A stretch of 64,000 nucleotides of DNA from an uncultured virus (IMG/VR IMGVR_UViG_3300032180_000385). Taxonomy: Duplodnaviria > Heunggongvirae > Uroviricota > Caudoviricetes. The notes beneath the pieces were generated by a model that ran no database searches, was not told where the DNA came from, and was given only the letters and a program-made list of their open reading frames with translations. The translations under genes and the position numbers were made by a program. The stretch is from positions 62,001 to 126,000 of IMG/VR virus record IMGVR_UViG_3300032180_000385; one strand, 5' to 3'. Positions 2,029 to 44,246 of this stretch are shown here, piece by piece (positions within the stretch are counted from its first letter, which is position 1; each line of letters begins with the position of its first letter).

Positions 2029-2058
2029 CCGGCTCCGGCTGTGACAAGCTGGCCGCAG
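2029..2058 (-). promoter_or_regulatory. late-leader hairpin motif, copy a
   Basis: CTGCGGCC-N14-GGAGCCGG followed by AGGAGG. Confidence 0.6.
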
Positions 2059-2067
2059 GCTACAGTA

Positions 2068-2880
2068 TCAGTGTAGACGTTCGAGCAGCTCGTCGCGGTA
2101 GTTCGTCACCACAAAGTCAAGCAGAGCCCCTCGGTAGTTCGCCACCACAAAGCTCAGCAGATCATCGACGCGCTGCCCCTTCCAGGACACCCATAGTTCT
2201 AGATTGTCAGGCCGATTATCAGTCTTGATGCCATTCTTGTGATGAACCTCCTCTTCTCGAAGTAGCGGACGCCCTAGCTGTTCCTCCATGACTAGACGGT
2301 GTTCGAATCGATCCCTGCCATTAACCTTAATTTTTCGATAACCATTTTCTGTAACCCAGCCGCGATCATCGTGATAGTAGGCCGGGCCATCCATCGGGCT
2401 GCCTGCCTTGCGTCGTCGCTCATGCCGAGGGCAGAGACCGCTTGCCGAACTTATCTTGGGCTGGTCGCATCCTTCCCAGACGCACTCCGGAACGGGTTCG
2501 TCTTTCCGGCGATGCGGTCGGATTGGCGCGTTCATATCTGAATGCAGAATGTACTTTCGATGATAATGCACCGAGCAGTATCCACGTGAGCTATGCGGAC
2601 GATCACAGCCAGGGTGACTACACAGCTTCTTTTCAGCAAACGGTACGTCCATGTTCCGGCCATTACGAACCCGCTGATAGTGTGCCGAACAGTATCCGCC
2701 CGCATGATGTGGCCGATCACAACCAGGATGATTGCAGTTTCGTTGACTGCCCCTGAACGGTATGTTCATGTCCCGACCCGTGAGCTGACGCTGGTAGTGC
2801 GCGTTGCACAGACCTGTTTTCTTATAAGAACGAGGCCGGTCGCAGCCAGGCCACGTGCAGGTAGACTGATCTTGTGTCAT
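2068..2880 (-). CDS. HNH homing endonuclease with tandem Cys/His zinc-finger repeats
   Basis: Repeats of CxxPGCDRP...GxCxxHY; EHRLVME...VHHKNGIKTDNRPDNLELW; TGT-TAAAAT 6 nt before the ATG (leaderless-type promoter). Confidence 0.9.
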   Translation of the reverse strand: MTQDQSTCTWPGCDRPRSYKKTGLCNAHYQRQLTGRDMNIPFRGSQRNCNHPGCDRPHHAGGYCSAHYQRVRNGRNMDVPFAEKKLCSHPGCDRPHSSRGYCSVHYHRKYILHSDMNAPIRPHRRKDEPVPECVWEGCDQPKISSASGLCPRHERRRKAGSPMDGPAYYHDDRGWVTENGYRKIKVNGRDRFEHRLVMEEQLGRPLLREEEVHHKNGIKTDNRPDNLELWVSWKGQRVDDLLSFVVANYRGALLDFVVTNYRDELLERLH

Positions 2881-2929
2881 ACCCTTATTTTAACACACCG
2901 ACCAGAATTTCAAAAACCAACAAATTCGA

Positions 2930-3871
2930 TCACACGCCGACTTTCAGGCGCTGATCGGTATACGGGCGAAGCATTTCGATGATCCACGGATTGGCCTGAA
3001 TTCTCACGACACCAAGGTCTCCTGCCCCAGCAATGCCAAAAGGCGCATCCTTGCGCTTAAACCATTCGGTGGCCAGCTCCAGGCAGGCCTGCGATACTGT
3101 CGGCGGAACAGATGGCCATCCCCAGGTGCCGGTAATCTGCACTCGGTCCATGTGCGCGAACGGGTAAATATACGGGAACCACTTACCGTTCTGCAGTACC
3201 TGTACCTTCTTGAACGGGCGCTGGACTCCGAGAGCGTTCAGGTTGTAGCGATCTTTGCCAAACTTGAGCTGGTAGTCCACGTTCTGCGTCCACGCCTCAG
3301 CGAACACGCCATTCCCGGTCTGATCGACGTTAAGAGAGGTGATGCTGACCAGAGGGTCAATCGTCAGTTCCCGGATGTCGTAGGGTACGAACGTCCGCGT
3401 CTCGGTAATCCGGTAAAAATGGGTGGCGCAATGCTCATTGATCCACGTACTCGCCGCCTGGATGGCCTGCTGCATGGCGAAATCGTCGGAACCGTCTTCA
3501 ACGCTGATCCGGTCTCGCAGCTCCTCCAGTCCGCAGTACCAGTTGCCGAGTTGGGGCGGGAACACGCGCCAGGTGCCTGGTTGAACGTCGGAAACAGCTC
3601 CGGTACCGATCCAGATGTAGCTCCACAGCCCGTCGATTCCGGTGATGGCCGGGGAACAGGGCACGATAAGCTCATAATGCCCAACCAGTGGCTTGGTGAT
3701 GTCTGCGGGAGAGGCACCGTTGTACGTATGAACAACCTGATTTCCTGATGGATCAGTGACAACACAGGAAACAGTTGTCGGATCGGTGTCGACGAGTGGG
3801 TCGCCCGCCTGAAACTCGTTGCTGAGCAGGGCTATCTCGTTCTGGTTGTCATAGTAGATAGTGCTGGTCAT
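2930..3871 (-). CDS. head-to-tail adaptor with extra N-terminal beta-rich domain
   Basis: C-terminal half YCGLEELR...AASTWINEHC...VQITGTWGWPSVPPTVSQACLELA...KDAPFGIAG matches actinophage head-to-tail adaptors. Confidence 0.75.
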   Translation of the reverse strand: MTSTIYYDNQNEIALLSNEFQAGDPLVDTDPTTVSCVVTDPSGNQVVHTYNGASPADITKPLVGHYELIVPCSPAITGIDGLWSYIWIGTGAVSDVQPGTWRVFPPQLGNWYCGLEELRDRISVEDGSDDFAMQQAIQAASTWINEHCATHFYRITETRTFVPYDIRELTIDPLVSITSLNVDQTGNGVFAEAWTQNVDYQLKFGKDRYNLNALGVQRPFKKVQVLQNGKWFPYIYPFAHMDRVQITGTWGWPSVPPTVSQACLELATEWFKRKDAPFGIAGAGDLGVVRIQANPWIIEMLRPYTDQRLKVGV

Positions 3872-3893
3872 CAGGGCCTCCTGCGCGAGAACC

Positions 3894-3914
3894 CTGGCTC
3901 CATGACGGCCGCAG
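3894..3914 (-). promoter_or_regulatory. late-leader hairpin motif, copy b
   Basis: TATCAT-N14-CTGCGGCC-GTCAT-GGAGCCAG, then AGGAGG and the adaptor ATG. Confidence 0.65.
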
Positions 3915-3926
3915 CGGTACGTACCC

Positions 3927-6377
3927 TCATGATACTCCGCTTAGGCTTCGTGCCGGGGAGGTGACAGTACTCGCGCCTGGCGCACCACCCGACACCGCCC
4001 CGTTCCGGCTCGACGCGGACTGGTTAACCGCACTCTGCGCAGGTACCAGAGCCAGTATGCTGTCCTGGCTTACCATCGGCTGTCCGATCGACGTCGCCGT
4101 GCTGTGCCCCTTAATGGTGCTGATCTCTAGGGTTCCCGGACGCAGTACGACAGACAGTGCCTCGGCAGCCTGCGCATGTGCCGCCAGCAGTAGCGAAGCA
4201 GCGGTTATCCCTGTTCCTGTCGCTACGCCGGCAGTTAGGGCAACCTCGGTTGAAGGTGACAGCACCGATCCGGTCCCGCTGGCAAGAGAAGGAGTCACCG
4301 CAGGAGCCGCAGGCAAGACGGTTCCGGTTCCAGTTGCAAGACCAGCAACGGTAACGAAGTCGGCCGAAGCGTCCGGAGCAGTACTCACCCCGTTGGCCAC
4401 TCCGGCAGTGATAGCTGTCGCGATCCCCGCATCCAGAGCGAGTCCAGACCCGAGAGCCCCCGGATCACCGCAGAATCCCGCTTCAGATGCCAATGCAACC
4501 CCGATGCCGACAGCGAGTACGGCGTCAGTAGCGATCGCGGCAGCTACAGGCAATACGGTTCCGGTTCCTACAGCGACCCCGAGCGTGGTCTGACTATCAA
4601 TCGCAGAAGCCGGGGTGGCACCTGTCCCGCTGGCAAGTCCCGCACCCGCCTGATTATCAGCATCCGACGCTAGGCTAGTTCCGCTTCCGGTTGCGGTATC
4701 AGCTACAAGCGCGAAAGAAACAACAGAAGCCTGACCCGTACCGGTAACAAGTCCAGCGGCAGTAAGCGCAGCAGTTACAGACGATACAGTCCCGATTCCG
4801 GTAGCGGTCCCCGCTGTAATCGCAATCACGGCTGGAGTCGTAACAATACTTGTTCCTGGCGCAAAACCAGCATTCCCAACGTTATCGGCATCAGGTGCCT
4901 GGCTCGCACCCGTTCCAGTCGCGAATCCAGGGGCTAGGCCAATTCCGGTAATACCAAGGCCGTAGAAACCTTCGCCGTAAGAACCTCCACCGTAAATGAT
5001 CTCCGTCAGGGCGCTCGCAAGATCGGCAAAACCTTGACTGCCCGCACTAGCTGACGGGACACCCCCGGTTCCGCTGGCAGATCCCGCTGCAAGGCCGATT
5101 CCTGGTGCTTGCACAGTGACGAGGCCGTCAGCAAGCCCCGTGCCTGCAGCTACCGCGGATCCGGATGGCTGCGCAATGGCGAGACCGGTCGCAGATCCTG
5201 CCGCTAGGCTGATTCCCGGTGCTAGTGCTAGGCCCGTGCCCGATGCGAGTCCTACGAAGCCCTGATTATCGGCATCCGGTGCCTGCGCAGCTCCGGTTCC
5301 AATGGCAAGCCCCGCAGCTACGAATACCGGAATCTGAGCTGTTGGTGCCTGTGCCGTACCGGTGGCGGATGCGAAGCCGGGGGTCAGTTCTGCTCCAGGG
5401 GCTCCTGCCGTGCCCGTGCCTGAAACGAGTCCTGCGCCCCCCTGGTTGTCGGCATCAGAGGTCTGCGCTATTCCGGTTCCGGTGGCGAGACCTGGTGTCA
5501 GTCCGACCGCAAGCCCGTCAACAACGGGAGCCCCCGTACCGATCCAGGTTTGATCTGAAGCAGCAAGGTTATCCATCCAAAACGTGTTCGTGCTGTTCGA
5601 TACGCTGGAGCCGATAAGGGCGAAGTTAAGTGCGGAAACGTTGTTGTTAGCTGCGTTGTTGACTGAATCCTGCAGAGTACCAGAAGCGTCGTAAAGTCGA
5701 GCGAAAGTCTGCGCATTTCCTGCCCCGGAAACAAACATGCCTTCAATTCGGTACCAGGTGTTCAGTGACATGGCGGTACCGGTACCGTTAACATTGCCGC
5801 CAGGTCCTATGGCAGAAATATGCCCGGTGCCTGTGATACCCAGCCCTAGTGCACCGGCTCCTGCACGGAATACGTACCCGATTGAATAGTTTGTCAGGTA
5901 GATATAAGCCCGCAGATAGAGGATAGCCGAGTTATACGGAAGCGGGTTCCAGCCGGTATAGCTGAGGCTCGCGGACGTGACAAACTTATAAGCCAGGGAG
6001 CCAGCGAAAACCTGAGAGTTGTCAAAGGTAATTGTTCCCACGCCACCTTGGGTAAGCGCATCACCTGACACTCCGCCGGAGTTCCCCGCTGTTACGGCCG
6101 TAGTGTTCGAGCCGCCTTCAGCTGTGTTTTTCAGCGCTAGAAAGCGAGCGCAGGCTACTCCGGTGCCTGTGGCGAGTCCGGCAGCCAGTCCTATTCCGGA
6201 AGACTGTACAGCACCGGTTCCGTGGGCGAGTCCTGCAGTGACGAATAGAGATGCCTCGCTATACAAAACAGGTGAGGCAACCGTCGTGCAGGCCGGCCAT
6301 GGGAACTGCGGGACGACAATCTTACTAGTGCCGGGAACAAGTGCGACACCGCCGTCGAGCTGGATGACTACTGCCAT
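3927..6377 (-). CDS. Gly/Ala/Thr-rich virion fibre/decoration protein with a lectin-like beta-sandwich domain
   Basis: Many GLATGTG and APDADNQ repeats; ~200-aa globular domain shared with 9676..13098. Confidence 0.6.
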   Translation of the reverse strand: MAVVIQLDGGVALVPGTSKIVVPQFPWPACTTVASPVLYSEASLFVTAGLAHGTGAVQSSGIGLAAGLATGTGVACARFLALKNTAEGGSNTTAVTAGNSGGVSGDALTQGGVGTITFDNSQVFAGSLAYKFVTSASLSYTGWNPLPYNSAILYLRAYIYLTNYSIGYVFRAGAGALGLGITGTGHISAIGPGGNVNGTGTAMSLNTWYRIEGMFVSGAGNAQTFARLYDASGTLQDSVNNAANNNVSALNFALIGSSVSNSTNTFWMDNLAASDQTWIGTGAPVVDGLAVGLTPGLATGTGIAQTSDADNQGGAGLVSGTGTAGAPGAELTPGFASATGTAQAPTAQIPVFVAAGLAIGTGAAQAPDADNQGFVGLASGTGLALAPGISLAAGSATGLAIAQPSGSAVAAGTGLADGLVTVQAPGIGLAAGSASGTGGVPSASAGSQGFADLASALTEIIYGGGSYGEGFYGLGITGIGLAPGFATGTGASQAPDADNVGNAGFAPGTSIVTTPAVIAITAGTATGIGTVSSVTAALTAAGLVTGTGQASVVSFALVADTATGSGTSLASDADNQAGAGLASGTGATPASAIDSQTTLGVAVGTGTVLPVAAAIATDAVLAVGIGVALASEAGFCGDPGALGSGLALDAGIATAITAGVANGVSTAPDASADFVTVAGLATGTGTVLPAAPAVTPSLASGTGSVLSPSTEVALTAGVATGTGITAASLLLAAHAQAAEALSVVLRPGTLEISTIKGHSTATSIGQPMVSQDSILALVPAQSAVNQSASSRNGAVSGGAPGASTVTSPARSLSGVS

Positions 6378-6417
6378 AACACTACCAGCATGTGATCACG
6401 CACTTATAATCACAACC

Positions 6418-6885
6418 CTACTTTCTAGGTGTACCGTTATAAACTCTCCCCTTATGCAAACCACATGTGCAGCCTGGAAGACAAGGTTGCTTCCTTGGAG
6501 CATTATGCTTTCCACAATCACAGCCAGGAAGACAAGGAGGGGACCCAGGAAGACCATGTTTTGCGCATTCGCAGCCCGGAAAACATGGTGGAGATGGTCT
6601 AAGATTTCCAACTGTTCCATCATAAACTCCGTGACAGCTATAGCACAACGGCCTGTAGTGCCAAACATCTGAACCATCTAGTCCGTGAATTTGAGACCAT
6701 TGCTTAGCAAAGTCGTTACAAAACGTGCATCCATAACCAGTAGCTTTGCCTCTTACTTTCTTAACAAGAGAATGGAGGTTAAAGTAGTCTAGTTCACCAT
6801 CGTATGCCCTACCTTTGTGTCTACCGCACTCGCACCCTGGAAGGCATTTTTTACCGGGGTGATTACTTCGATTTCCTTTAGTCAT
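6418..6885 (-). CDS. HNH-like Cys-rich protein with its own leaderless-type promoter
   Basis: TTGAAT-N17-TATAAT-ACTACT-ATG (6920-6883); LH..V...RGKA..Y.C..C...YRPLCYSCH; CLPGCxCGxH repeats. Confidence 0.65.
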   Translation of the reverse strand: MTKGNRSNHPGKKCLPGCECGRHKGRAYDGELDYFNLHSLVKKVRGKATGYGCTFCNDFAKQWSQIHGLDGSDVWHYRPLCYSCHGVYDGTVGNLRPSPPCFPGCECAKHGLPGSPPCLPGCDCGKHNAPRKQPCLPGCTCGLHKGRVYNGTPRK

Positions 6886-6932
6886 AGTAGTATTATACAA
6901 CATTCCTTGAATAAATTCAACCATTGAAATTC

Positions 6933-7893
6933 CTAACCAGCATGTTATACAGACGAGTCCATTACCACCGTTCCCGCCTGCACCGCCTGTAACTCCACCG
7001 CCTCCGCCTCCGCCGCCACAGCCGATAGCACCATCGCCACCACGGCCACCGATACCAGCGCTAGCCGATCCGCCACCCGTTCCCCCGAAGAATACCCAGG
7101 TTAGATTGGTATAACTAGCTCCGGACACTCCGGCACCTCCCCCGCCTGCGACCCCGGTACCCCCAGGAAAATTAGCCGGAAAAAAATTAGGCCCTACACC
7201 TGAATATGTATTCGAATACGGTGTTATACTACCGCCATTTGTATCGCCATTTGCAGCTGATGCGCCCCCTCCGCCGCTGCCTCCGGTTGTCATTATTCCG
7301 CCTGCAGCAAGAGTCACACCTGTAGCATTTCCTGTTCCATTCCCGCCAGCGGAGGCGGAGGCGATAATGGAACTAGCTGATACCATCCCGACCATACCAT
7401 AACCAGCATAAGACTGACTTCCATTTTCACTAGCCCCAGCTGCACCGCCCACACTAGCTGTCCCGGCTGATCCGAAAGCTGCCGACTGGTTTGAATTAGT
7501 TACAGCAAGAGCAGGGGCCTGACCGCCTATATTACTGCCGCGCATGATGTCACCAAATAGTCCTACGGCAGTAACATCGCCCGAAGAGCCGTTTGAACCA
7601 GCCGCACCGCCCGCACCGCCAGTCCCTGCATAAACATATAGAGAGGCAGGCAAGAGAAATGCCGGGACCAGGTACCGTACAGATGCCCCGGCGCCGCCAC
7701 CGCCTCCGCCGCCACGTAGTGTAGAAGTGGCTCCAGAATAGCCTCCTCCGCCACCAGCCCCGGGTCCGATCAGCATCATCCAGACCATGGTAATCCCTTT
7801 TGGTTTTGTCCATATCTGACAGGAGTTTAGACCGATATTGTAAAACACCTGCTGCCGGTCACCTGTATCTGGCCAGCCAAAAAAATCAGGCAT
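6933..7893 (-). CDS. glycine-rich virion fibre protein (reads through in frame into the downstream HNH-like ORF)
   Basis: WTKPKG.TMVWM.LIG.GAGGGGG...GGNGGNGLVCITCW; same family as the C-terminal domain of 16891..19260. Confidence 0.65.
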
Positions 7894-7894
7894 G

Positions 7895-8335
7895 TCAGTA
7901 ATCACCGCCGACGACTGATACCCGCACTCCGGCTGCTACAGCAGTTCCTAGCGTACAGTTAATGACATATCCAGCGGGGATGGCAAAATTAAAGGCGATC
8001 TCGCTTGTCTGAAGAGCTGCTGCCGCATTCGCGGTAGATGCAGGAATAGTCAGCTCTGAGATCAAGACGTTGTTCGCTTGCGTCGCGTTAGTAGACCCAT
8101 TATTAAGAAAAACACGGAGAACAGTAGTAACATTCGTACCGACCGGACGGCAGACTAGCTTCTGAATGTACGAGCCATTCGCCCCGGCGGTGAAGACCGA
8201 AGTTACATAACCTGTACCATCCATCGCTGTGTTAGCAGACAGTATCGGTCCTGCGGTTGCCGCCGCATTGTCGTCGACTGAACCCCAGCTGATATGCGGC
8301 GTGAGGGTAAACAGGGGGGCGGTGTTAGCAGGCAT
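7895..8335 (-). CDS. virion structural protein (beta-sandwich)
   Basis: MPANTAPLF...VFTAGANGS...VLRVFLNNG...VVGGDY; located in the structural cluster. Confidence 0.55.
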   Translation of the reverse strand: MPANTAPLFTLTPHISWGSVDDNAAATAGPILSANTAMDGTGYVTSVFTAGANGSYIQKLVCRPVGTNVTTVLRVFLNNGSTNATQANNVLISELTIPASTANAAAALQTSEIAFNFAIPAGYVINCTLGTAVAAGVRVSVVGGDY

Positions 8336-8343
8336 CTCGGCTC

Positions 8344-8556
8344 CTACTCGTGATCCCGGTCGTCACCCTGGGCGGTAACGCCTGGCTGGCTGCTCGCTGG
8401 GTAGACGCGGGTTAGCTCGGAGCCGTCCGGGTAGACGCGAGCCGAGTCGGGGTTGCCGTCAGCGGCGAAGTACGAGCCGGTGACCGTCAGGTCGGTGAGG
8501 TTCAGGGCGGCAGCAACCGCAGACGCGAGTCCCGAGGGGAGACTGAGGTTTGCCAT
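8344..8556 (-). CDS. small protein with RVYP / PGVTAxGDDRDH C-terminal motif
   Basis: GGAG RBS before the ATG; C-terminus nearly identical to that of 30259..31176. Confidence 0.6.
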   Translation of the reverse strand: MANLSLPSGLASAVAAALNLTDLTVTGSYFAADGNPDSARVYPDGSELTRVYPASSQPGVTAQGDDRDHE

Positions 8557-8581
8557 GTCGTCTCCTGCAGGTCGAGGGAAC

Positions 8582-8608
8582 CTGGCTCCAGGATGGCGCT
8601 GGCCGCAG
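8582..8608 (-). promoter_or_regulatory. late-leader hairpin motif, copy c
   Basis: TACGAT-N16-CTGCGGCC-N11-GGAGCCAG. Confidence 0.65.
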
Positions 8609-8686
8609 ATGGCACTTCTCGTCCATCGTACCGTCAACCGGCCCGATCGTACCTCCGCGCTCCCGAAGACTTGCCGAGCTGCACCG

Positions 8687-9154
8687 CTATGCCGCCATCT
8701 GAATCGTAAGAATCCCGAGCACATTCCATGAAATGGCGAATGTTCCGGCTACCGTCGAATACCCGGTGCCGCCGAAATAAATGCCGCAGATTTTAGCCTT
8801 CGGACTAAGACCATTAGCATATATATAGCAGCCATAGGCAGGGGCGGTTGTAGTGGTGCTCCCGACGCTAACATTATTCATTGACCACATAAGTGTTTTA
8901 CTTGGTGATTGCGTCAGGGTCGGGGCATAGGAACCAGTGCTCAGGTTGATGCCGCCCGTCGGCCAATTCGAACCCGCAGTCACCTCATTCCCATTAGTCC
9001 AGGTAGACGGATCAGTAGCTGAAATATAGTCAGGTGTCTCCGAGTTTGTAGATAGCGACAAATTATTGTTTGTATCGAGAAGACTCATCGCGATGACTTG
9101 CTTAAGGGTATCTCTAAAAGTGGCGTAAAAGATACCACTCTCCGTCCAGGCCAT
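8687..9154 (-). CDS. virion structural protein; intein-free paralog of 14993..15943
   Basis: GNEVT..NW..GGI.L, YGC..Y, YFGG...AGTF.I.W shared with the extein of 14993..15943. Confidence 0.65.
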   Translation of the reverse strand: MAWTESGIFYATFRDTLKQVIAMSLLDTNNNLSLSTNSETPDYISATDPSTWTNGNEVTAGSNWPTGGINLSTGSYAPTLTQSPSKTLMWSMNNVSVGSTTTTAPAYGCYIYANGLSPKAKICGIYFGGTGYSTVAGTFAISWNVLGILTIQMAA

Positions 9155-9155
9155 A

Positions 9156-9410
9156 TCACCCTCCGTTACTCGGTAGCACGCCCGCTGCCACGCCCTGCGC
9201 GGCCCGGACCGGTGCCAGCTCGTCAGCGAGAGCCTGCGCAGCGGTGTGATCTCCGTCTGCCATCGCCTCCGCGTACAGAGCGACCAGCTCATTCAGCGGA
9301 CGGGATGCGCCCAGGTGCCCGACTGCGGCCTTGCGCAGCACGGCAGGGTCAGCGTCTGGCTGATGCTCGCGCAGCGCCTTATCAAAAATCGCCTGGCTCT
9401 GCCAGCTCAT
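9156..9410 (-). CDS. hypothetical protein
   Basis: Translationally coupled ORF within the operon. Confidence 0.5.
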   Translation of the reverse strand: MSWQSQAIFDKALREHQPDADPAVLRKAAVGHLGASRPLNELVALYAEAMADGDHTAAQALADELAPVRAAQGVAAGVLPSNGG

Positions 9411-9691
9411 ATCAGCCCCGTCTTCGTCTCGATAGTCTGGGGATGGATGTTCACATCTTGCCGACAGGAAACTCCTGAGCCGGGATTACTATGTTCGGTT
9501 ACCATGTTTCCAAGCGTGTCAGTAGTTTCCTTGAAAGGCAGGTGCGACTCGGGGTGCTCACGGCCTGATTTTTCTGTTACCCGTGTTCGTCCATGGGACA
9601 GATGACCGATTGACTTCATCCGGTCCAGCTGCTTACGCCACTCATCCGTCATCGCGATGTCCTCTCCAACTGCTCTCAGGGTACCGTCCAC
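9407..9691 (-). CDS. hypothetical protein (start may be the internal MTDEW)
   Basis: ORF in the operon; GGAGAGG upstream of the internal ATG. Confidence 0.5.
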   Translation of the reverse strand: MDGTLRAVGEDIAMTDEWRKQLDRMKSIGHLSHGRTRVTEKSGREHPESHLPFKETTDTLGNMVTEHSNPGSGVSCRQDVNIHPQTIETKTGLI

Positions 9692-12600
9692 ACAGCGTTA
9701 GAATTATCCGGTACGCCAATTACGCCAGGTGCGTTCGTCCAGGCTCCCTCCCCCGCAGTCACCGGCAGGTCTTCAGCCGTGGCCCAGCTGAGCGATGTCA
9801 CGTCGGTGATGACTGGGAACGCCGGCACGACGGCAAGAGTAGCCGGGTGCACGGTGGCGTTCGCATCGGCCACGACCGCCGGTACCGGGATCACCGCAGA
9901 GACGCTCAGCGCACTCGCGAAGATATGCGCGGCCTCGAACCCGGCAGTAGCGGCCGGTAGCGCTGAGGCAACGGCAAGCGTACTCGGAGCGACCGACGCG
10001 TTCACGATCCCGCTAGCCGATGGTGCCTGAATTGCGGTGAGCACGTTGAACGTCTCCGGGAAAACAATCGCGCTGTGGCCTGGCAGCCAGACGACAGACA
10101 GGCTTACAGCGTCAACGTTCACCGTTGCGCCGTGATTGCCCAGAAGAGTGCCGGCGATCACCCGCAGCCGGAGCGTGGCAAGCTGGCTGTAGGCTACCCC
10201 ACTGAATTCAACGACATCGGCGTGGCCGGGAACGGTAGACACGGTGCCCATCTGGGGAGAGCCGATCCGTGCAGAGGTTCCGTCCCACAGTTCGTACGAG
10301 GGCGCAACGATACTCGCGTTGGAACCGTATTGCACGATAGTGGCGATTACGGACTGGATGAGAGAACCGGCCGGTACCTGCGGGAATGAGCTGAACCCGT
10401 AGCCTTCTAGCGCTGGAGACATAGTCGCCACGCTTGGCGGCAGTGCCGTGCCCGCTCCGGCGACGGATCCCGCGATTACCCTGCTCGCGGGCGCGGGAGC
10501 CTGTGCAGCAGCAATGCCCGAAACCAATCCAGGAGCCAATCCCATCCCGGTAATTCCGAGACCGTAGAAACCTCCTCCGTAAGAACCTCCGCCATAGGTA
10601 ATTTCCGTCAAAGCGCTTGCAAGCCCGGTACTAGCGGCCTGGTTATCAGCATCGGGCGCCTGGCTTACGCCCGTCCCGGTAACAAGACCGACGGTAAGCC
10701 CGATACCGATAAGACTGAAACCATACACTCCCGCGCCGTACACGCCACCGCTGTACACAGGTCCTGTCAACCCAGCGGCGAATCCGGCAGCGACCTGATT
10801 ATCAGCATCTGGCGACAGAACCGTACCCGTACCGCCCGCAGTCCCTGAGCTAATCCCTCGACCGACTACCTGCGCCGTGCCCGTGCCTGAAACGAGTCCT
10901 GCGCCCCCCTGGTTATCGGCATCCGGTGCCTGCGCAGCTCCGGTTCCGGTGGCAAGACCTGGTGTCAGTCCGACCGCGAGCCCGGCAACGAGAGGAGCCC
11001 CTGTACCGATCCAGGCCTGATCAGAGGCGGCCAGGTTATCCAGCCAGAGCGTGGTCGTGCTGTTCGAGATGCTGGAACCAATAAGAGCGAAGCCAAATGT
11101 TGAAACATTATTGTTAGCCGCGTTGTTTACCGAGTCCAGCAAGGTGCCAGAGGTATCGTACATGCGGACAAATGCCTGCGCATTACCAGCTCCGGCTACG
11201 AACATACCTTCAATTCGGTACCAGGTATTCAAAGAGGCCGCCGTACCGGTACCAGTAACGTTACCGCCAGGGCCTGCTGCGAGCAAATGCCCCGAGCTAT
11301 TAATGAGCAACCCCAGTGCCCCGGTTCCAGCCCGGAATATATACCCGACAGAGTAGTTCGTCAGGTAAATATACGCCCGCATGTAAAGAATCGCCGGGTT
11401 GTATGGACATGGGTTCCAGCCGGTATAGCTGAGGCTCGCAGCAGTGACGAACTTATAAGCCAGAGAGCCGGCGAAAACCTGAGAGTTGTCAAAGGTAACT
11501 GTTCCCACGCCACCTTGGGTAAGCGCATCACCTGACACTCCGCCGGAGTTCCCTGCTGTTACGGCAGTTGTGTTCGAGCCGCCCTCGGCCGTGTTTTTCA
11601 GCGCCAGGAAGCGAGCGCAGGCGATTCCGGTACCTGTGGCGAGTCCGGCGGTGATCTGAACGTTCGAAGAAGGTGACTGCGATACCCCTGTTCCGGTAGT
11701 CAGTCCCGGTGTCAGCTCCGTACTCGGTACCTGAGCGGTTCCGGTGCCTGTCGCGAGTCCCGGAGTTAGCTCGATGCCCGATGCCGAAACGGATCCAGTA
11801 CCTGTTGCCAAACCGGGCGTCAGCTCGATGCCCTGTCCTGGCGGGGTAAGGACAGAAGCGTCGTCAATATACAGCTGGATGGTCGAGTCTGGCGTCCCGT
11901 TAAATCCTACGCTGGCATGAACCTTGTAAGTGCCTGCGGGTATAGTAAACGCGCCTGACGTGTAGAATCCAGCCGTCGCGGCGGGAAGGTTAAAAGAGGC
12001 AGGATAGTATCCGCCCAGGTAGTTGCTCCCGGAATAATCAAAGTAGTCCATGGTAAATCGGGTAAGAGAGTAACCTTGCGGGCTGTAAAGATAAGCCTGA
12101 ACCTGAAGAACCTGACCAGGGACAACGTTTATTGTCTCAATGGTGACGATGCCTGACGATACCCCAGTTGTTGTCATCAACCAGGACTGGGTGCCGTCGT
12201 TCGACCACCCAGAAGAAAGCGCTCCGGTCACGCCAGTTTGGAATACATTCCACAGCCCGGTACTGCCCTCGAAATTGTCGAAGGTGATGACCGTGGTTCC
12301 GGTGCCGGTAGCGAAAGAGGTTGCCTGTGGTGGTGTCAGCCCAATGCTCGTTGCCCGAGCTGTACCTGTACCGGTGGCTAGCCCCGCGGTCACCGTGAAA
12401 GTTTCCTTTGCCAGCAAAAGATAAGAGTTGCTGGAAACGGCTTCGTTGAACGTCTGACCACCGGGCGTGACCGTTCCCGTAGACGACAAGGTCTCCGTGT
12501 AAGCTGACACCGAGTTCGCGAAGGCCCCGCCCGCCCCCGCATATCCGCCCAGGGCGACAACTGAGAAACCACTGGACGGCGTGGTCATCGAGATAGCGGA

Positions 12601-14567: not shown

Positions 14568-14591
14568 CTGGCTCCACGCTTACGGCCGCAG
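14568..14591 (-). promoter_or_regulatory. late-leader hairpin motif, copy d
   Basis: TGG-TACGCT-N13-CTGCGGCC-N8-GGAGCCAG, then GGAGG and ATG. Confidence 0.65.
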
Positions 14592-16821: not shown

Positions 16822-16842
16822 CCGGCTCCTGGGTGGCCGCAG
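16822..16842 (-). promoter_or_regulatory. late-leader hairpin motif, copy e
   Basis: TGC-TATGCT-N14-CTGCGGCC-ACCCA-GGAGCCGG. Confidence 0.7.
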
Positions 16843-19290: not shown

Positions 19291-19312
19291 CCGGCTCCGT
19301 CTCAGGCCGCAG
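19291..19312 (-). promoter_or_regulatory. late-leader hairpin motif, copy f
   Basis: TGA-TACGCT-N14-CTGCGGCC-TGAGAC-GGAGCCGG. Confidence 0.7.
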
Positions 19313-32624: not shown

Positions 32625-33068
32625 TTACAGCCGGCCGCCGAACGCCGACTGAAGCTGGGCCTTGGTCAGCGCCCCGGCCTCATCAAGGCTGGTGCCCTGA
32701 CTGACCGCGTACGCTACCCAGGCTGATTTCGGATCCGCCGGGGCCGGACGCGGAACCTCGGGAGAAGGGGCCGGCGGCGGAGGCTCGTGATGCGGAACAG
32801 GCGGTGCGGCTTCCGCTGCCTTCACCGCTGCGGGCGTCTGGGTAACTTCCGTCACCGAAACCGGAGTCTCCCATGACTGAGCGGCTGGCGGCGCTGACGG
32901 CGGTGGAGCAGGACGTGCCCAGTCCGGTGCCGCTACCTGCCTGGCCAGCTGACCGCGGACAAGCGCAATGCCTTCATCATCATCGACCTCGAACACCGCG
33001 TACTTCGGCGGCCACGCGTCCCCGCCCGGACGGCCCCCGGAGATCCCCTCGAGCATCTGAACCCACAT
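32625..33068 (-). CDS. capsid-adjacent protein with Pro-rich linker and C-terminal HeH/LEM-like helix pair
   Basis: KSAWVAYAVSQG...EAGALTKAQL. Confidence 0.55.
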   Translation of the reverse strand: MWVQMLEGISGGRPGGDAWPPKYAVFEVDDDEGIALVRGQLARQVAAPDWARPAPPPSAPPAAQSWETPVSVTEVTQTPAAVKAAEAAPPVPHHEPPPPAPSPEVPRPAPADPKSAWVAYAVSQGTSLDEAGALTKAQLQSAFGGRL

Positions 33069-33070: not shown

Positions 33071-33379
33071 CTATGCTTCCCTCCGGAAGTCGTTAATATC
33101 GACAAGCTGCCTCGTGCCCGATGACGAGCAGTCGGTACACACGAATGTCTTCCCATCGCCATTCTCGCTGATGATCCGGGCGCCGGGAAGAGCGAAATGA
33201 CCGCAGGCCAGCCGCTGCAGGCCACCCGTCTCCCGGCACTTAGCGCACGCGAGCTGACCTGTCTTCAGCCGGAGTGCCCGCCGCACCGAACCCGACCCAA
33301 GCGACCGCCCGCAGAACGCGCACCGTTCCCGAGGAGCCGACGGTGCCTGCCGGATCCTGGCTCGACGCGTATTACTCAT
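33071..33379 (-). CDS. zinc-finger protein
   Basis: CAFCG, CAKC, ACGH, CTDC. Confidence 0.55.
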   Translation of the reverse strand: MSNTRRARIRQAPSAPRERCAFCGRSLGSGSVRRALRLKTGQLACAKCRETGGLQRLACGHFALPGARIISENGDGKTFVCTDCSSSGTRQLVDINDFRREA

Positions 33380-35666: not shown

Positions 35667-35707
35667 CCGGCTCCGTCCGCACCCTGGAAGGGCAGCTACG
35701 GCCTCGG
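35667..35707 (-). promoter_or_regulatory. late-leader hairpin motif, copy g (covariant), upstream of the capsid gene
   Basis: CCGAGGCC-[GTAGCTGCCCTTCCAGGGTGCGGAC]-GGAGCCGG. Confidence 0.55.
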
Positions 35708-36781: not shown

Positions 36782-37474
36782 ATGACCAGTGGACGTAACC
36801 CTGACTACATCCCGGGCAAGACCTGCGAGAACTGCGGGAAGCCTATTCCGTGGCGTCCCGGGATAGAGGTGCGAGCGAGAGCCCGCTGGTGCAGCAAAGA
36901 CTGCTTCCAAACCGCTGGACGCGATGCTGCACCTAAGCCGTGTGAAAACTGCGGCAAGCCAATCCCGTGGCGGGAAGGCCGCGCAGCCCGTACTAAGGCT
37001 CGCTTCTGCTGCGACGCCTGTAAATTCGCTTGGCAGAAGCTCCACCCGCCGAATCCACGACAACCTCGGGAAACGAAGCCATGCGACACATGCGGCAAGC
37101 CTGTCGAGTACCTTCCATCCCAGAAGCTGGCAAGTAAGTACCCGAACGGAAACATCTACTGCTCCCGAGAATGCTTCGGTATCGGGCATTCTAAAACCAT
37201 GACGGGACGCCGTCCCAGCGGAGGCATCTATACCTCGCCCAGCACCTTCCGACTGATGATCCGACGCGAATTCTTCGACCGCTGCGCCATCTGCGGCTGG
37301 GACACAACCCCGTGCGACGTCGCGCACATCATCGATCGGAAAGACGGCGGACCCGACTCGCTGGAGAACGTTGTGATGCTGTGCCCGAACCACCACCGGG
37401 CCTTCGACATGAAGTTGATCCCCGTCGAGACAATCCGGCTGGCACGAGAAACGATCCTGCGTAATCATCAGTGA
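36782..37474 (+). CDS. HNH endonuclease with CxxCGK...CS..C repeats, antisense to the head operon
   Basis: CAICGW...DVAHI...GG.D..ENVVMLCPNHHRAFD; TGT-TATACT-N6-ATG. Confidence 0.85.
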   Translation: MTSGRNPDYIPGKTCENCGKPIPWRPGIEVRARARWCSKDCFQTAGRDAAPKPCENCGKPIPWREGRAARTKARFCCDACKFAWQKLHPPNPRQPRETKPCDTCGKPVEYLPSQKLASKYPNGNIYCSRECFGIGHSKTMTGRRPSGGIYTSPSTFRLMIRREFFDRCAICGWDTTPCDVAHIIDRKDGGPDSLENVVMLCPNHHRAFDMKLIPVETIRLARETILRNHQ

Positions 37475-40159
37475 TCACCGTGCCCGTTTCCGTTACCATT
37501 CATTGATCCGGCCAGGACTGACCGCTCCGCATCGGACGGTATCCACGCCCCAACGTATTCAGGCTCGACCTTTTCCGCACGAGCCCGTCCTTCACGCGCC
37601 AGCGCCCGCAGGACAGCTATCAGACCATCCGTGGACAGATCTCCGGCATCTCGCGTCTTCGTCAGAACGGCTGCAAGCAATGATGCGGGAGATTTCGCAG
37701 ACGGCTCAATATTAGGCTGCGCGATACCTTCCTGCTGAAGCTTTTCCAGCCGGTCTGCGGCTAGGTCCATCTCCAGCGTAATCTGGGGAAGCATGGAGTT
37801 CGGAATGCCGCGAATAGAGTGAGCCATCGCGACCATGACATCCGCCGGGATAACCTCATTGCCTGCCCCGCCTGGAAGTGGCCCCATGTCTTCCTTCTCG
37901 CGAATCTCGTCGATGGTCAGGATCCCCGTGTCCCGCTGAGACTCGTAGATCTCCGTCCGGGTCTTCAGATCAGTCTTCAGCAGCGCGTCAGAATTAAAGC
38001 GAACGTACCGGTTAGCGGGAATAATATCGAAGAACGCGGTCTCTAGCCTAACCATCCACGGACGCAAGGATTCAATGACCTGAAGGGTACTCATCTCTAC
38101 CGTGTTGCCAGTAAAATAGCAGGTGCCGTTCCGACGCGCATACCAAGACTTACTTGGCGTACTTACACACCATACAAGATCTGTAACCTCGTCGGTCACG
38201 TACTCCGGATGACCCTTCGGCTTACGCCACGGTGAAATCTGAATCGGCATAACATACATACCATGCTTATTCGGTCCCCGTACCACGCCCGAGCGTCCAG
38301 ACAGTGCGCAGGCAACCTGGAACGCATCAAGCCGCGCTTTATCCTTCTGTGCCATCGTCCAACTTGCGGCATGCCGAGAGCCATCAGCATCGAGGGACGT
38401 TTGAATGAAAAGCTCAAGCTGTGCCCTGGTAAGCTGGCTCAGAAATTCCGTAGAAACTACCTTAGCAGGAGCATGCTTTGTCAGCACCTGCCCAGCTTGC
38501 GCGTTCAACCTGAAATGCACGTGCCCCCGCTCGTCCAGGTCTTCCTGCCATGCCGGACCGCCATCGTGCTGTCCCGTAAGACCATTTCGCAGATTTCGCA
38601 CCACACTCGCGTGTGAACCGCACTTCCGAGCTATTCCCCGATTCGTCCCACTCGGATCACGAAGTAGCTCAACCCGGATAAGATCCCGCTTCTTCCGCCC
38701 ACGCCCGCCTAGCAACGAAACGCCACGCTCTACAGCACTTGGCCCAAACATCTCCGTCAGCGCTGCCCTAATCCGCATTACGTTCAGCGGGTTCACTCGC
38801 TCCGACTGAGCAATTGTCACGGCACCTGATTCCCCGATCCATCCCTCTGTCCAGAACCAAGCCACCAACTCAGCTAGTGCGTCCGACCACTTCGGCTCTA
38901 CCGGAGTCACAACCGGAGCCGCCGCGCAGACCCGCGAATTAATCGGCATAGTTTCTGTAGTTCGCCACTGGTAACCTTCGTTTCTGCGCCTTTCCCCAGA
39001 CAACATCACAGGCCAACGATGATTTGGCGTGGTTACCGACGAATGTGACAGGTTCTCCAGGCGGATAACCGGATAAGACGCGTCATCAAAAACATGTACC
39101 TTTTGAACTGGCTGCCATTCAGCCATACCCGTTTCAGTATTCAGTCCAAGACAAGTGTCCCCGGCAAGCACCTGATCGTGCCTCAGCCAACCGCGCAAGG
39201 TTAGGATTTCCGTCTCAGCATCAGCGCAGTTGTAGGTTAGACTGTCAGCCCTTTTCCCGCCAACGCGATCCGGAGGAAGCCCATAAATGGCAGCAAGCTG
39301 GGTAGCGCTAAACTGCTGACTCTCGATGAATTGAGCTTCAGACGGCGGAACTGTTATCGGCTTGTATTCCCAGTCTCGACCGTAGACGAGTGGCGTATGG
39401 TTCCGGATCGCATCGACTAGCTGCTCCTTGATCTGGTCAGACGCATCCTTATCCACTTCCAGCTGATTATTCTGAAAGGTGCCTGGTGGAAAACCACCGG
39501 AAGCGAACCAGTCGTTGCCAAACCGCTGGGCTTCCGTTCCCGACGAGATCGTCAGCATGAAATGCCGTAGCGGAGAAATACCCTCCGTACGGCCGGGGAG
39601 CGTAAATGCCCGGATATGAAAAAGCTCGTCACGCCAGTTTTCAATCAACCGTCCGTAGACGTACACCCGGGTACGAAGGGGATTCCATGGCTGCTGCGGG
39701 TCATCAATGACGTTAACCATGTCCGGCGGAATCCAATCGATTCCAGTCGGGTAACTAAAGCCATCGCGACCGGTGACGAAACCCCAGGCGTTTCCGTGCA
39801 GGAGCAGTGATGTCATGCACTGGTACACCCAGTCAAAGGTGTTCGCGCTGACTGATGGCCGATCAAAAATAGACGGTCCCCAGTACCTGGCCGCAACGCC
39901 ACCGCCGGGGGCTCGTGTGTAAAGCTTGATTGGCAGGCTGGCGAGAGATTCGGCTAGCAACCGGACGCAGGAATAGAGTGCCGGAAGACCGAGTGCCTGA
40001 TCCTGGCCGTAGAACGCCCGGGACGGATGAATCGGCCCACCTTGCGAAAATTTGAAGTAAATAGGGTGAATCCCATGGACGAATTAATCGCCATGGAACT
40101 CCGCCGATAACGCGCTGCTCAACACTTCTGTCAGCCAAGATGCGATCAAGGAAACCCAT
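37468..40159 (-). CDS. portal protein (HK97 family) with an intein; 5' end frameshifted near 40060
   Basis: ALYSCVRLLAESLASLP, LLLHGNA, ELFHIR...GISPL, EAQFIES...IYGLPP, GILTIDEIR; N-terminal MGFLDRI...EQR lies in a different frame. Confidence 0.9.
38104..39228 (-). mobile_element. intein with LAGLIDADG-like endonuclease (375 aa) in the portal
   Basis: TYN|CADAETEILTLRGW...TTPNHRW...WFWTEG...LDADG...YFTGN|TVE. Confidence 0.9.
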
Positions 40160-40200
40160 AACCCCTACCACCTCCCTCCGCCTACTGCTAGAATGGAACT

Positions 40201-40893
40201 ATGGGTAGAGGGACGCCGGACCTGGCAGATCAAAAATTCGGGCGCCTGCGGGTGCTGACGCGAGACTGGGACGCTCCTGGTCCACATGCTCAATGGCTGT
40301 GCTGGTGCGACTGTGGCACGATGACTTCGGTAGCTAGCAGCGCTCTGCGCTCGGGTGCAACACAAAGCTGCGGCTGCCTGCACAGTGAACGAACGGCAAC
40401 ATCGAACGCAGCTCGCGCAGGCTATAGCGCGCCTATCCGCAGGAACACAAAGCCCCGACCTAGCTTGGCTGACCCAACAGTATGGCGCAGTAGCTCCCGA
40501 TCCTACGGAAGCTGGATTAACATGATTCGCCGTTGCACGCACATGAACGATCCGCGATACCCCGAATGGGGTGGACGAGGTATCACTGTCTGCGAACGCT
40601 GGTTGTCCTTCGACAATTTTCTGGCCGATATGGGAGAACGTCCGCCTAAAATGTCCCTGAACAGAATCGATAACAACGGGAACTACGAACCCGAAAACTG
40701 CAACTGGGCTACATCTCATGAGCAACAGATGAACACCAGGAGCTTTAAACTGATACCCGAAGTGGTAGCCGAGATCAAACGTCTCCGCACAACTGGACTG
40801 ACACTGGACGCGATTGGAACGAAGCTCAACCTGCATCGCAATACTGTGTCGCGAGCCCTGAGCGGGAAGACGCGGCAGCGTAGCGGTAAGTAG
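40201..40893 (+). CDS. HNH endonuclease, antisense, inserted between the portal leader and the portal start
   Basis: FGRLRVL...WLCWCDCG...SCGC, YGSW.NM..RC...[19 protein letters not shown]...[26 protein letters not shown]6-ATG. Confidence 0.9.
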
Positions 40894-40960
40894 CTTTGAC
40901 CTACCGTTCACCTGCTCGACTTGCCTCACCTGACAACAGACCCTTCGCTGGAACGAGGGC

Positions 40961-40982: not shown

Positions 40983-41081
40983 GCACTATTGGCTACAGAG
41001 TACGTCATGGACGCCGTTCCGCAAACCATTCTAGGCACTTATCTCGGATCAGCGACGCTTACAGACTTTACGATACAGTCT

Positions 41082-41384
41082 TTAAACTTTGCTGTTGTCC
41101 TGAGATCGCGACCCGGCTGCCGCCTGCCGAACTGACTTTTCGGTCTGCCGAACGTCCCACCCGGTACCATCCCGCCAGCCACGGCGTACCGCTATCGCAA
41201 AAATAACCAGGCCGTTATGCCACACCCATAGCGCACCGATGACAAGCACAAGCCACACGCGCCCCAATACAAAACCTGGAACCCAGCAAAGCCAGAGAAC
41301 CACGGCAAGAACTATCTGCGAAAACCTGACCTTCTTAGCGCGGACCGTAATCTCGCTCAGCGGCAGAAACTTCAGCGTTGTCAT
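41082..41384 (-). CDS. small membrane protein between terminase and portal
   Basis: Long hydrophobic/Trp-rich segments; ATGA coupling to TerL. Confidence 0.6.
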   Translation of the reverse strand: MTTLKFLPLSEITVRAKKVRFSQIVLAVVLWLCWVPGFVLGRVWLVLVIGALWVWHNGLVIFAIAVRRGWRDGTGWDVRQTEKSVRQAAAGSRSQDNSKV

Positions 41385-43129
41385 ACCGGCATCCTAAGGC
41401 AGATGTTCTCCGCTAAGCGCACAGAGCTGAGAAGGTCGTAGCCGCGCCTCTTCTTCCCGAGCGCCCAGCTAGCCAGGGTAACGGCAACGATCGGCGTAAT
41501 ATCAGCCTCGCTGTCGCGTCGTGACCAGCCGCGCCCGCCATCTCCGATCTGCCGGGTTTCGGCACTGCCGATCGCAGACCACAGCACAGGTGCCTGCTCC
41601 CTGCCGAGATGAATGACCTGGCGATCACGGATGCCGGTGACAATCTGAGCAAATGCAGCAGCCTCATCAGCACTGCCGGCCGCCAGCACTTCAATCCCTG
41701 CCTGCTCTGCCGCGTCAATCAGCCCGGCCGCCGGTCCGTTCTTCGGAATGCAGACAGCAGCAGGATGGTACTCGCGGTTCAGCTCGACAAGCCGGGGGAT
41801 GACCCAGTCCGTACCCTCGCGAGAGCAGCCGCGGGGGATCTCCAGCACCGTTCGATACCTCGTCCTCGGTGGTGACAGAGGAAATTTTTCCTCGAGCTTC
41901 GGCTCTGGCCGTTCCCAGGCCGCTCCGATAGTAGTGACAGTCATCTCCGGGTTGACATCAACCGCGAAGGCCAACGGTCGGACCGCACCACCGGGATCTC
42001 CCAGGGCACACTGACTCCAGGCTTCTTCGGAGACGACCGCCCAGGCTTCCTCTTCGGCCGGCCAGTCGCCAACGCTGAGGATCTCACGGTCAAACTGCGC
42101 CATGGTCATCGTCGCGAATTCCTTGGCCGTCTGCTCATAGCTGATCCTGGTACCCAGGGCAGGATTCGCCTTCGCCCAGGATCGCGGGTCATCCCGGTCA
42201 TCATGTCGGTCGCAGACGATGTACCGATTGGTCTTCCGGCCAAGCACCTCATCGCGCGGGCAGGTATCGAGGTGCGGGTCGATCGACCACTCGGCACCCA
42301 TCAGCGTCTGATCTTGACGCATGATCCGGCGCCGGACGAGGGCAAGCTGAATGCTATCGTGGTAGCCCGCTGAAGCGGTATAAATGACCTGCGGATTAGG
42401 AACCGCGCGCATGGTCGGCAAAGACGCCCCAACTTGCTCATCGGTCAAAAACATTGCCTCGTCATAGACGACCGTATCAGCTGTGAAACTTCGCCCGGAA
42501 CCGCGAGAGCGAGCCAGAAAACGAAGTCGGCTACCAACGCTACGCCGAATCATCTTGCCGCCTTGTCCAAAGATAAGCGTCGGCGCTGGCTTCAACTCGA
42601 TTGACTCTTCACCATGACTGGTAATAACCCGGTGAACGCGCCTTCTCAGCTCATCATAAGCGGAGATAGTATCCTGAACCCGGCGGAAATGCTCAGCAGC
42701 AGCCTTGAACTCATGCGCGGTATGAATAATCATCCGCTCGCCGAATACAAAAAGCCCGCCTATCTCCCGAACTTCCAAATTTTGGTTCTTACCGTTCTGC
42801 CTGGCAACAATTGCAGCGTTCTCAAAAGCAGCCCACCTTCCATCAGGCTTAGTCCCGCAGCATTCGCCGAGCCACCATTCCTGCCATTCATCAAGGCTGT
42901 ACCCGACGGTAGGAGCCCAGTCCAGTAGCTCTTCCGATGCGTGGTTCCCGCAACCTGACTGGTACCCGTTCTGCTTACCGCGCCAGCACGCCCCGCACTT
43001 CGGGTCGATCTCCCGATGCCTGGGGGGAGCGGTCCAGAACCGCGGCATCTGGCTGCCGACTAGCTGACCGTGCAGGATCGACCCGTCGGGCAGGTAAACG
43101 TCAGGCACCGCGACGAGGTGAACGCTCAT
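41381..43129 (-). CDS. terL: terminase large subunit
   Basis: LDEWQ, Walker A VARQNGKN, HTAHEF, Walker B VVYDEA, YTASAG, WAKANPALG, nuclease FAVDV and DITP.VA.TLA. Confidence 0.95.
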   Translation of the reverse strand: MSVHLVAVPDVYLPDGSILHGQLVGSQMPRFWTAPPRHREIDPKCGACWRGKQNGYQSGCGNHASEELLDWAPTVGYSLDEWQEWWLGECCGTKPDGRWAAFENAAIVARQNGKNQNLEVREIGGLFVFGERMIIHTAHEFKAAAEHFRRVQDTISAYDELRRRVHRVITSHGEESIELKPAPTLIFGQGGKMIRRSVGSRLRFLARSRGSGRSFTADTVVYDEAMFLTDEQVGASLPTMRAVPNPQVIYTASAGYHDSIQLALVRRRIMRQDQTLMGAEWSIDPHLDTCPRDEVLGRKTNRYIVCDRHDDRDDPRSWAKANPALGTRISYEQTAKEFATMTMAQFDREILSVGDWPAEEEAWAVVSEEAWSQCALGDPGGAVRPLAFAVDVNPEMTVTTIGAAWERPEPKLEEKFPLSPPRTRYRTVLEIPRGCSREGTDWVIPRLVELNREYHPAAVCIPKNGPAAGLIDAAEQAGIEVLAAGSADEAAAFAQIVTGIRDRQVIHLGREQAPVLWSAIGSAETRQIGDGGRGWSRRDSEADITPIVAVTLASWALGKKRRGYDLLSSVRLAENICLRMPV

Positions 43130-44246
43130 GACTCAGCCCAGGCACTCCTTGTCCGAAGGTTGCCTGGCTCCGGTTCCGAGAGGAACGGCCGCAGGATAAC
43201 GCTAGTTTAAACCCCATCAAGGCACGAGCCTCATCGATGGTCATCATCCCCCGGTTAATCTTAACCATAATCCGTGCCAGTGCTCGGCCGAATTCCTGGT
43301 CCGGCTCGGGCAGCTCGCCGCGTCGCACGGTCCCATCGGGCAGAAAGACATCCGGTACGACAACAAGATGCGCAGCCATGGCTCAGACCCCGTTGCCACT
43401 AATAAGACTGACCTGGTTCGTCCGGCAGACCGGCATGCCCACAAGAGCATCCAGATACAGGGACCTCCGGAAAGACGAATCTGAAAACTGTGAACTCATG
43501 AAATTAAACGGAAGGGGCGCGGAAAGGAAGCCCGGAATGATCCCGGCTGTCAGGGCAGGCTCATATGTGTACTCGCCACCGCCCCCGCCCGCAGGCAGCT
43601 CGCCACGTCGCACAGTCCCATCGGGCAGAAAGACATCCGGTACGGCAACAAGCCTCATGACCATTGTTCCTCGCTGAGCAGAAGAATCTGAGCCTCATGA
43701 TAAGTAATCCACCCATAACTGAGTGCTGTCTTAACTTGCCTTATACGCCGCTCCCTGCTCGTCTCAGGTGGCTTCCCGCGCCGCACAGACCCATCCGGCA
43801 GGAAGACATCGGGCACAGCGACAAGACGAATGGTCATGCCAGATCACTCATCTGGGTCTTGAGTTTTTCCATGATCGCAGCCTGGCTTTTCAGTGTCTGT
43901 TGCAGCTTGTCCGCAACCTCCGTTACCGCCGCAATAGCCATGATGATCTGACACATCTGAGGTACCCGATGCTTTCGCTGCTCCAGCCAGTCGGCCAGAT
44001 CACCACGCCGCGCTGTGCCATCGGGCAGGAAAACATCGGGTACGGCAACGAGGCGAACGGTCATAACTCTCTTCGCCCCTTGCTGATCCGAAATGTCGGC
44101 TCAAAGCCAGCCTCAACGAGCAAATTCTTGAAGACAGCCAGTCTCCCGAGCCGATGTTTCCACTTGTAAGGCAACGCCTGCTCCCCATGCAAAACGGTAC
44201 CGTCGGGCAGGAAAACATCGGGTACGACAACGAGGTGAACGGTCAC
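43101..44246 (-). repeat. tandem array of five mini-ORFs (44061-44246, 43834-44064, 43655-43837, 43383-43664, 43101-43379), each starting with a copy of the TerL N-terminal ~22 codons
   Basis: MxxxLV[AV]VPDVFLPDG[TS]xxxG at every start; TerL itself starts MSVHLVAVPDVYLPDGSILHG. Confidence 0.85.
43164..43194 (-). promoter_or_regulatory. late-leader hairpin motif, copy i (terL leader)
   Basis: TAAACT-N9-CTGCGGCC-[GTTCCTCTCGGAACC]-GGAGCCAG, then AAGGAG. Confidence 0.65.

Follow-up and report, generated by a model that had tools for sequence, protein, structure and literature searches.

The timing of late gene expression in tailed phages is normally transcriptional. Among RNA-level devices, the available excerpts of PMC6483171 describe phage Mu, in which Com activates mom translation by reading a CC(N2-3)GAG loop on one mRNA; there, protein binding exposes the start signals. 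In phage T4, according to the excerpts of PMC3014915, genes e, soc, 49 and I-TevI carry hairpins that sequester the ribosome-binding site (RBS), the stem being opened by transcription that starts inside it. The SAS/ESAS motif of cluster K mycobacteriophages is, in the available part of PMC3203893, the RBS itself, a 13-mer located 3–7 nucleotides (nt) from the start of non-structural genes. Here we describe an element in a 64-kb stretch (the window; positions 62,001 to 126,000) of the uncultured virus record IMGVR_UViG_3300032180_000385. It consists of a short RNA internal-loop module, P1, and behind each copy a competing stem, P2, that takes the 3′ arm of P1 and covers the Shine-Dalgarno (SD) site or the start codon. 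The best explanation, to which we assign a probability of about 0.6, is a ligand-gated translational on-switch for late genes.

As in Mu (PMC6483171, available excerpts), the hairpin adjoins and overlaps a stem that would inhibit translation, and the pairing of a binding hairpin with a start-burying stem that characterizes Com/mom is found here by computed and comparative evidence. By analogy the element would work most like Com/mom, but it does not appear to be a member of that system: P1 is an internal loop that accepts any apical spacer, is repeated about 11 times, can be permuted and is dimerised. In common with the T4 hairpins, an SD-burying stem would hold late genes off, whereas the probable transcription start lies upstream of both stems, the −10 box ends 9–16 nt before P1 and a conserved loop motif is needed. 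With SAS the element shares a repeated, oriented motif near actinophage starts that has GGAGCC inside; unlike SAS, P1 precedes structural genes, is base-paired and ends 22–58 nt upstream of the start codon in the window copies, short of the ribosome site, the arrangement one would expect for activation. The sequence GATAGGAGCCC (window 32594-32606, minus), before the start of a gene of 176 amino acids (aa), resembles the cluster K SAS 13-mer and is probably a strong RBS only.

The window forms part of a 129-kb phage record that is contained in a 185-kb record. Its structural genes lie on the minus strand in the order terL, portal, protease, capsid, tailspike-like gene and adaptor. The presence of Lsr2, WhiB and SsgA genes points to an actinomycete host, and no cultured phage was found with a capsid more than 32% identical to that of the window phage. 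A first-pass annotation, made from the letters alone, had reported nine minus-strand copies of the pattern CYGMGGCC-spacer-GGAGCCRG, and all nine were located, with no match to this strict pattern on the plus strand. The whole 129-kb record gave 10 minus-strand matches and none on the plus strand, so the equal strand frequency for which that annotation had proposed to check was not seen; in 100 order-3 Markov simulations covering both strands the mean was 0.1 and the maximum 1. The 185-kb record holds 11 strict matches, on one strand only and all within the late region. Copies outside the window are found at genome positions 60449 and 51600 (minus), and a variant at 22388 (plus) lies 5′ of a plus-strand gene. 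The spacer between the two halves ranges from 4 to 25 nt, and the annotation was right about the outer pairs CUG/CAG, CUG/CGG and CCG/CGG. Its count of seven copies located 9–16 nt after a TAnnnT box has to be raised to eight of nine, the capsid copy being without a box, and its description of the boxes as often TGn-extended applies to just three of the eight (in relatives, T is present at that position in 8 of 76). The assignments of copies to terL, capsid and adaptor were borne out. Of the two supposed tailspikes, only the gene following the copy at 19291 encodes a protein matching tailspike/pectate lyase, the 462-aa gene after 14568 having no family match, and the copy said to be upstream of portal (40961) is separated from the portal start by about 800 nt, in which an antisense HNH gene lies.

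P1 has the form 5′-stem, bulge N1-4, GG, 2 base pairs (bp) / 2 bp, AGC, stem-3′. Compensatory changes are present in all five of its pairs. Among 55 distinct double sites, from a pool in which 47 of 110 entries were pattern-selected and the loop letters were set by rule, the position given as M in the first-pass pattern proves to be the bulge (A 23, U 11, C 7, 2-4 nt in 14); the pair flanking it is G-C in 48 and U-A in 3, the next pair out is C-G in 36, U-A in 10 and U-G in 4, and the loop-adjacent pair is C-G in 47, U-G in 6 and U-A in 2. Three leaders have A-U as the second inner pair, and the outermost pair is U-A in permuted forms. In the capsid leader two loops are arranged head-to-head, 4 bp apart, to give a two-fold double site, and all 47 matches to the double-site pattern in viral contigs lie directly 5′ of a capsid (43) or tail tube (4) gene. 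The halves are swapped on the same strand in 16 of 1861 leaders, compared with 4–7 in shuffles. Eight of 40 adaptor leaders are permuted, all straight after TAnnnT; the forward form is found in the window and one relative, and 28 have no site. Permutation and the double site are expected of an RNA internal loop and not of a double-stranded DNA site. On its own, P1 does not exceed shuffled sequences in stability (z −0.1 to −0.6) and therefore probably needs a partner. Compact overlapping double sites (GG-U-AGC opposite GG-AGC) were seen in the capsid leaders of L192, L219 and L224, and a drifted form in L129.

That the RNA module is real and uncatalogued is strongly supported. The first-pass annotation had not recognised a named motif, and in agreement with this the Rfam 15 search gave no window match at or above the gathering threshold, only plus-strand noise (E about 1) over the capsid leader. 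No match is present in the readable tables of viral candidate structured RNAs of Fremin 2023 (PMC10690425). We found no description of the motif in the literature, although the alignment archives of PMC10690425, which lay outside the search, may hold an unnamed candidate.

Comparison of related records shows the element to be a conserved feature of one clade of uncultured actinomycete (soil) phages. At 53 terL loci a relaxed pattern matched 85 times on the same strand and 12 times on the opposite strand, and 14 of 16 whole records carry matches. A TAnnnT box stands 5′ of 77 of 113 distinct matches (background 3.9%), its first base 15–30 nt before P1, and a purine peak 7–8 nt past the hexamer resembles a start site. 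Upstream of these boxes there was neither a −35 consensus nor an activator consensus, and sigma-70 region 2 was found in none of five records. When leaders were picked by gene, the strict pattern was present in 23/63 capsid, 16/35 terL, 23/47 post-capsid, 6/35 portal and 0/6 adaptor leaders. With variants allowed, 51 of 63 capsid leaders satisfy the double-site rule, and 28 of 58 tail-tube leaders have a site (about 8% in shuffles). From this survey, the element is near-fixed at the capsid gene and has been gained or lost at other genes. Two records (G010 and G011) are motif-free by the strict view, yet carry a U-bulge variant, and hence there is no clean outgroup. A single-site strict scan of viral contigs gave mostly chance hits among the matches listed, while for the double-site pattern no leader-like case occurred among the 120 genome-collection stretches listed.

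The 5′ edge of P2 falls inside the 3′ arm of P1, and this complementarity is conserved. The arm GGAGCCRG of 19 terL leaders is complementary to the stretch just past the SD, and its variable R meets U as A in 3 and C as G in 15, with a single mismatch. Forcing P1 lowered the predicted median cost of opening the ribosome site from 13.8 to 7.9 kcal/mol. The predicted coupling had a median of 5.6 kcal/mol, as against 1.3 for scrambled P1 (Wilcoxon p 9e-12), and exceeded 1 kcal/mol in 66/79 scored copies compared with 49/79 scrambled ones. All eight permuted adaptor sites gave positive predicted coupling (2.7-8.0 kcal/mol). By gene class, the opening cost was 12.7 for motif genes (n=33) and 7.2 for ordinary genes (n=808). 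The first-pass annotation mentions neither the bulge nor the stem that competes with P1 and buries the SD, and it likewise has nothing on the double site or the permuted form.

According to the explanation we prefer, late mRNAs made from host-type TAnnnT promoters would carry P1 at their 5′ end, as an RNA internal loop recognised by a protein. Unbound P1 would be weak, and its 3′ arm would pair at or past the SD to form P2, keeping translation off. The ligand, most likely a dimer-capable RNA-binding protein, would stabilise P1 and in doing so shorten or abolish P2, so that the ribosome site is freed; in this way about a dozen late units could be turned on together, post-transcriptionally, with the capsid gene governed by a two-fold double site. 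Sequence comparison establishes the structure of P1, its permuted and double forms, its placement and the conserved complementarity of P2; the transcription starts, a ligand and its kind, activation as the direction and a role in timing are inferences. Among the functions that the first-pass annotation had offered for a late-gene element, translational control is favoured, in the form of a leader whose bound protein activates and does not block, and antitermination is less likely. A broader proposal, for which we would give somewhat less than even odds, is that this clade runs its late programme mainly by translation, through default-locked leaders, host-type promoters and one two-fold RNA-binding factor, possibly with an L9-N-fold post-capsid protein as positive feedback, and that the dose of each gene depends on whether its site is single, permuted or double. 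If true, late-gene timing here would be distinct from that by late sigma factors, DNA activators or antitermination. A regulon built on this switch, for which nature has supplied permuted and doubled copies along with numerous compensatory variants, would be a strategy not seen before and would indicate an RNA-binding activator that has so far escaped notice, and the element itself would provide a compact, putative 20-nt on-switch.

The portal locus amounts to an experiment done by nature, for in the window phage the portal leader is separated from a regenerated portal start by an antisense HNH gene. Wherever a portal locus has such an insertion or a remnant of one, the frame that begins at the gated start is open (19 of 19), against 5 of 38 for the other two frames; the gated frame ends 3–10 nt before the new portal start or overruns that start. 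These features suggest that translation from the gated start is what must be handed on, and the short insertion remnants are harder to explain by chance. In the hidden HNH insertion of ShiLan, as reported in the available excerpts of PMC11855218, the host frame is likewise kept stop-free, with the insertion out of frame inside a methylase; unlike that case, the HNH gene here is antisense, lies at the portal start and is accompanied by a regenerated start. Antisense HNH genes at the portal start (window 40165-40929; L123, L129, L130, L186 and L197) form a family in which the start is regenerated, the sense frame is open and decay to short remnants is seen. As a separate observation, the portal start at 40159 and the main portal frame (37468-39960) are in different reading frames, and there is no resemblance to relatives beyond about 33 codons (39863-40159, minus), reflecting either an assembly error or a real frameshift.

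Several points weigh against a ligand-gated on-switch. The sequences are related, and the counts are not independent events. The element is patchy, being absent from 30/58 tail-tube and 28/40 adaptor leaders. In a general ungapped test the covariation of P2 is weak (p 0.045), the best score exceeding the shuffle in 49/77. The energetic coupling is computed, in silico only, and 15 of the 94 copies in the set had no called start and were left out; 13 of the 79 scored show 1 kcal/mol or less, at least 7 being negative, and the window copy at 8582 gives 0.3. As regards the portal loci, the insertions share ancestry, and the long ones mostly use the codon-aligned antisense frame; by chance this frame is open in 2/32 genes here and in up to 32/55 genes of a 71% GC relative. 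Lastly, no ligand was found among the phage proteins. No protein in five records passed the cut-off for the Com zinc ribbon (PF10122), and three Cys/His proteins, present in 3–5 of 7 records, do not supply a universal Com-like zinc ribbon. An Arg-rich peptide of 45-61 aa is confined to 3/7 records (G002, G004 and G007) and absent from the window phage, and both the SRP54 M domain and an S20 gene are lacking.

Pfam scans of 128, 100 and 25 earlier proteins gave Ro60 as the sole clear RNA-binding family. As a ligand, Ro60/TROVE (window 52416-54194, minus) is not supported, being present in only 3/7 records; no Y RNA was matched by Rfam in the window. A basic 207-aa protein (1254-1877, minus) was set aside on its papain/C39-like fold; it is kept in 7/7 records, with a basic N-terminus and a mobile gene position. 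A Cys-rich protein with an Arg-rich N-terminus, encoded in the capsid operon (33071-33379, minus), is found at 32 capsid loci but in only 3/7 records. A search for autoregulatory sites lying across a start codon gave none that recurred. The only protein conserved in 7/7 records in which an RNA-binding-like fold was seen is a 147-aa post-capsid protein. The model of its N-domain superimposes on ribosomal protein L9-N with a root-mean-square deviation of 1.3 Å over 47 residues (E 0.7), and GINS domains match too. It is missing near capsid in three loci, two of which are without a capsid site. This protein is only a weak lead, since similar proteins are common in unrelated phages, where they are annotated as connector.

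The alternative that survives best, although unlikely, is that the same protein-bound loop represses, with a late protein, for example the post-capsid L9-N-fold protein, exerting negative feedback. The anti-SD strand would then be decoyed by the free GGAG of the P1 arm, and protein binding would return it to the true SD. In keeping with this, the post-capsid leaders have the arm GGAGC followed by GCTCC, able to pair with either GGAG, the sole conserved candidate protein is itself late, and a few copies have negative coupling. Net coupling is, however, positive in most copies and in all eight permuted ones, several of which have no GGAG in the arm; moreover, P1 does not overlap the ribosome site and the default fold is closed already.

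Only slightly less probable is a ligand-free folding switch or 5′ stabiliser, in which P1 would form first on transcripts from the local promoter and delay P2, while read-through RNA would fold P2, the inverse of T4 gene e. The frequent TAnnnT boxes and the purine peak that follows them would fit such a device, but P1 is no stabler than its shuffles, the GG/AGC loop letters are kept while the stems vary, and the capsid copies are double-sited yet have no local promoter.

Antitermination sites such as N/nut and put allow read-through of downstream terminators. It is improbable that P1 is a site of this kind, modifying RNA polymerase just past each late promoter for antitermination or anti-pausing, even though it is promoter-proximal, has a single orientation per transcript and is restricted to the late region. 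It is the distance to the start codon and the overlap with the SD stem that are conserved, whereas the interval from the TAnnnT box varies, and some copies have no promoter. About 11 internal promoters lower the need for antitermination, and the 14 terminator-like sites in window 1-20000 are about as many as chance would give (14.8).

More doubtful by a little is that the ligand is a host factor recruited through mimicry of rRNA or of signal recognition particle (SRP) RNA, or a small molecule acting as on a riboswitch. No phage ligand was found, and the letters GG-CC/GG-AGC are shared with actinobacterial 16S helix 44; helix 44, though, pairs in a different register, so that mimicry of the helix 44/S20 site was rejected, there being no S20 gene either. 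Of the rule-matching stretches common to two rRNA operons, none is what we take to be a paired helix of P1 form, and among the 120 genome stretches listed the double-site matches include none that is leader-like. The loop also resembles SRP helix 8 (A-C, G-G, G-A) in the available excerpts of PMC5807370, with GG opposite AGC in a short helix, as in helix 8b (RF00169). Unlike helix 8b as described in those excerpts, P1 has neither the GGAA tetraloop nor the asymmetric loop, and the invariant A-C position is a variable bulge in P1 (A, U, C or 2-4 nt; C in 64/77), on which grounds SRP helix 8 mimicry was rejected. Least probable is that the element works as double-stranded DNA, a two-part site bound by a transcription factor. 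The repeats beside promoters and the conserved XRE-HTH and WhiB genes might speak for this, but the spacer of 4–25 nt, the same-strand half swaps, the compensatory pair changes and the variable −10 spacing uphold the first-pass view of an RNA element rather than a DNA operator.

Table 1. Copies of the element and associated features in the window (window coordinates).
Feature	Position	Strand	Details
terL P1	43164..43194	minus	-10 box TAAACT 43204-43209; P2 predicted to bury SD AAGGAG; start 43129; terL = phrog_9
Portal-leader P1	40961..40982	minus	-10 box TACTCT 40997-41002; putative gated start GTG 40929
Probable coupling frame	40165..40929	minus	254 codons, antisense through HNH gene; stops 5 nt before regenerated portal start 40159
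HNH endonuclease gene, inserted between portal leader and portal start	40201..40893	plus	phrog_374, E 7e-61
Double P1 (outer forward + inner inverted loop)	35667..35707	minus	major capsid start 35608, phrog_10; no -10 box nearby
147-aa post-capsid protein, bL9-N-like N-domain + Rho_N/SAP-like C-domain	32625..33068	minus	weak candidate ligand
P1 before tailspike-like gene	19291..19312	minus	-10 box TACGCT 19327-19332; gene start 19260
P1 before 109-aa gene (16466-16795)	16822..16842	minus	-10 box TATGCT 16857-16862
P1 before 462-aa gene (start 14540)	14568..14591	minus	-10 box TACGCT 14605-14610
P1 before 70-aa gene (start 8556)	8582..8608	minus	-10 box TACGAT 8625-8630; weak predicted coupling, 0.3 kcal/mol
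Head-tail adaptor P1	3894..3914	minus	-10 box TATCAT 3929-3934; P2 predicted to bury SD GGAGG; start 3871; orthologous leaders often permuted
P1	2029..2058	minus	-10 box TACACT 2070-2075; would gate GTG 2005 or GTG 2007

For the last copy in Table 1, GTG 2005 opens a 67-codon unannotated frame that overruns the start of the 207-aa gene at 1877, and GTG 2007 a frame of 8 codons. Just 5′ of terL (window 43101-44246, minus), three short genes share a near-identical terL opening (xRLVAVPDVFLPDG), which suggests that they are duplicated terL starts. A 5176-aa gene in the tail region (genome 33655-49185, minus) probably encodes the tape measure protein, a label based on its position and size. The major tail tube gene contains a group I intron (RF00028, 52.5 bits, above gathering) at L253:13279-13534 (minus), corresponding to genome about 51279-51534.

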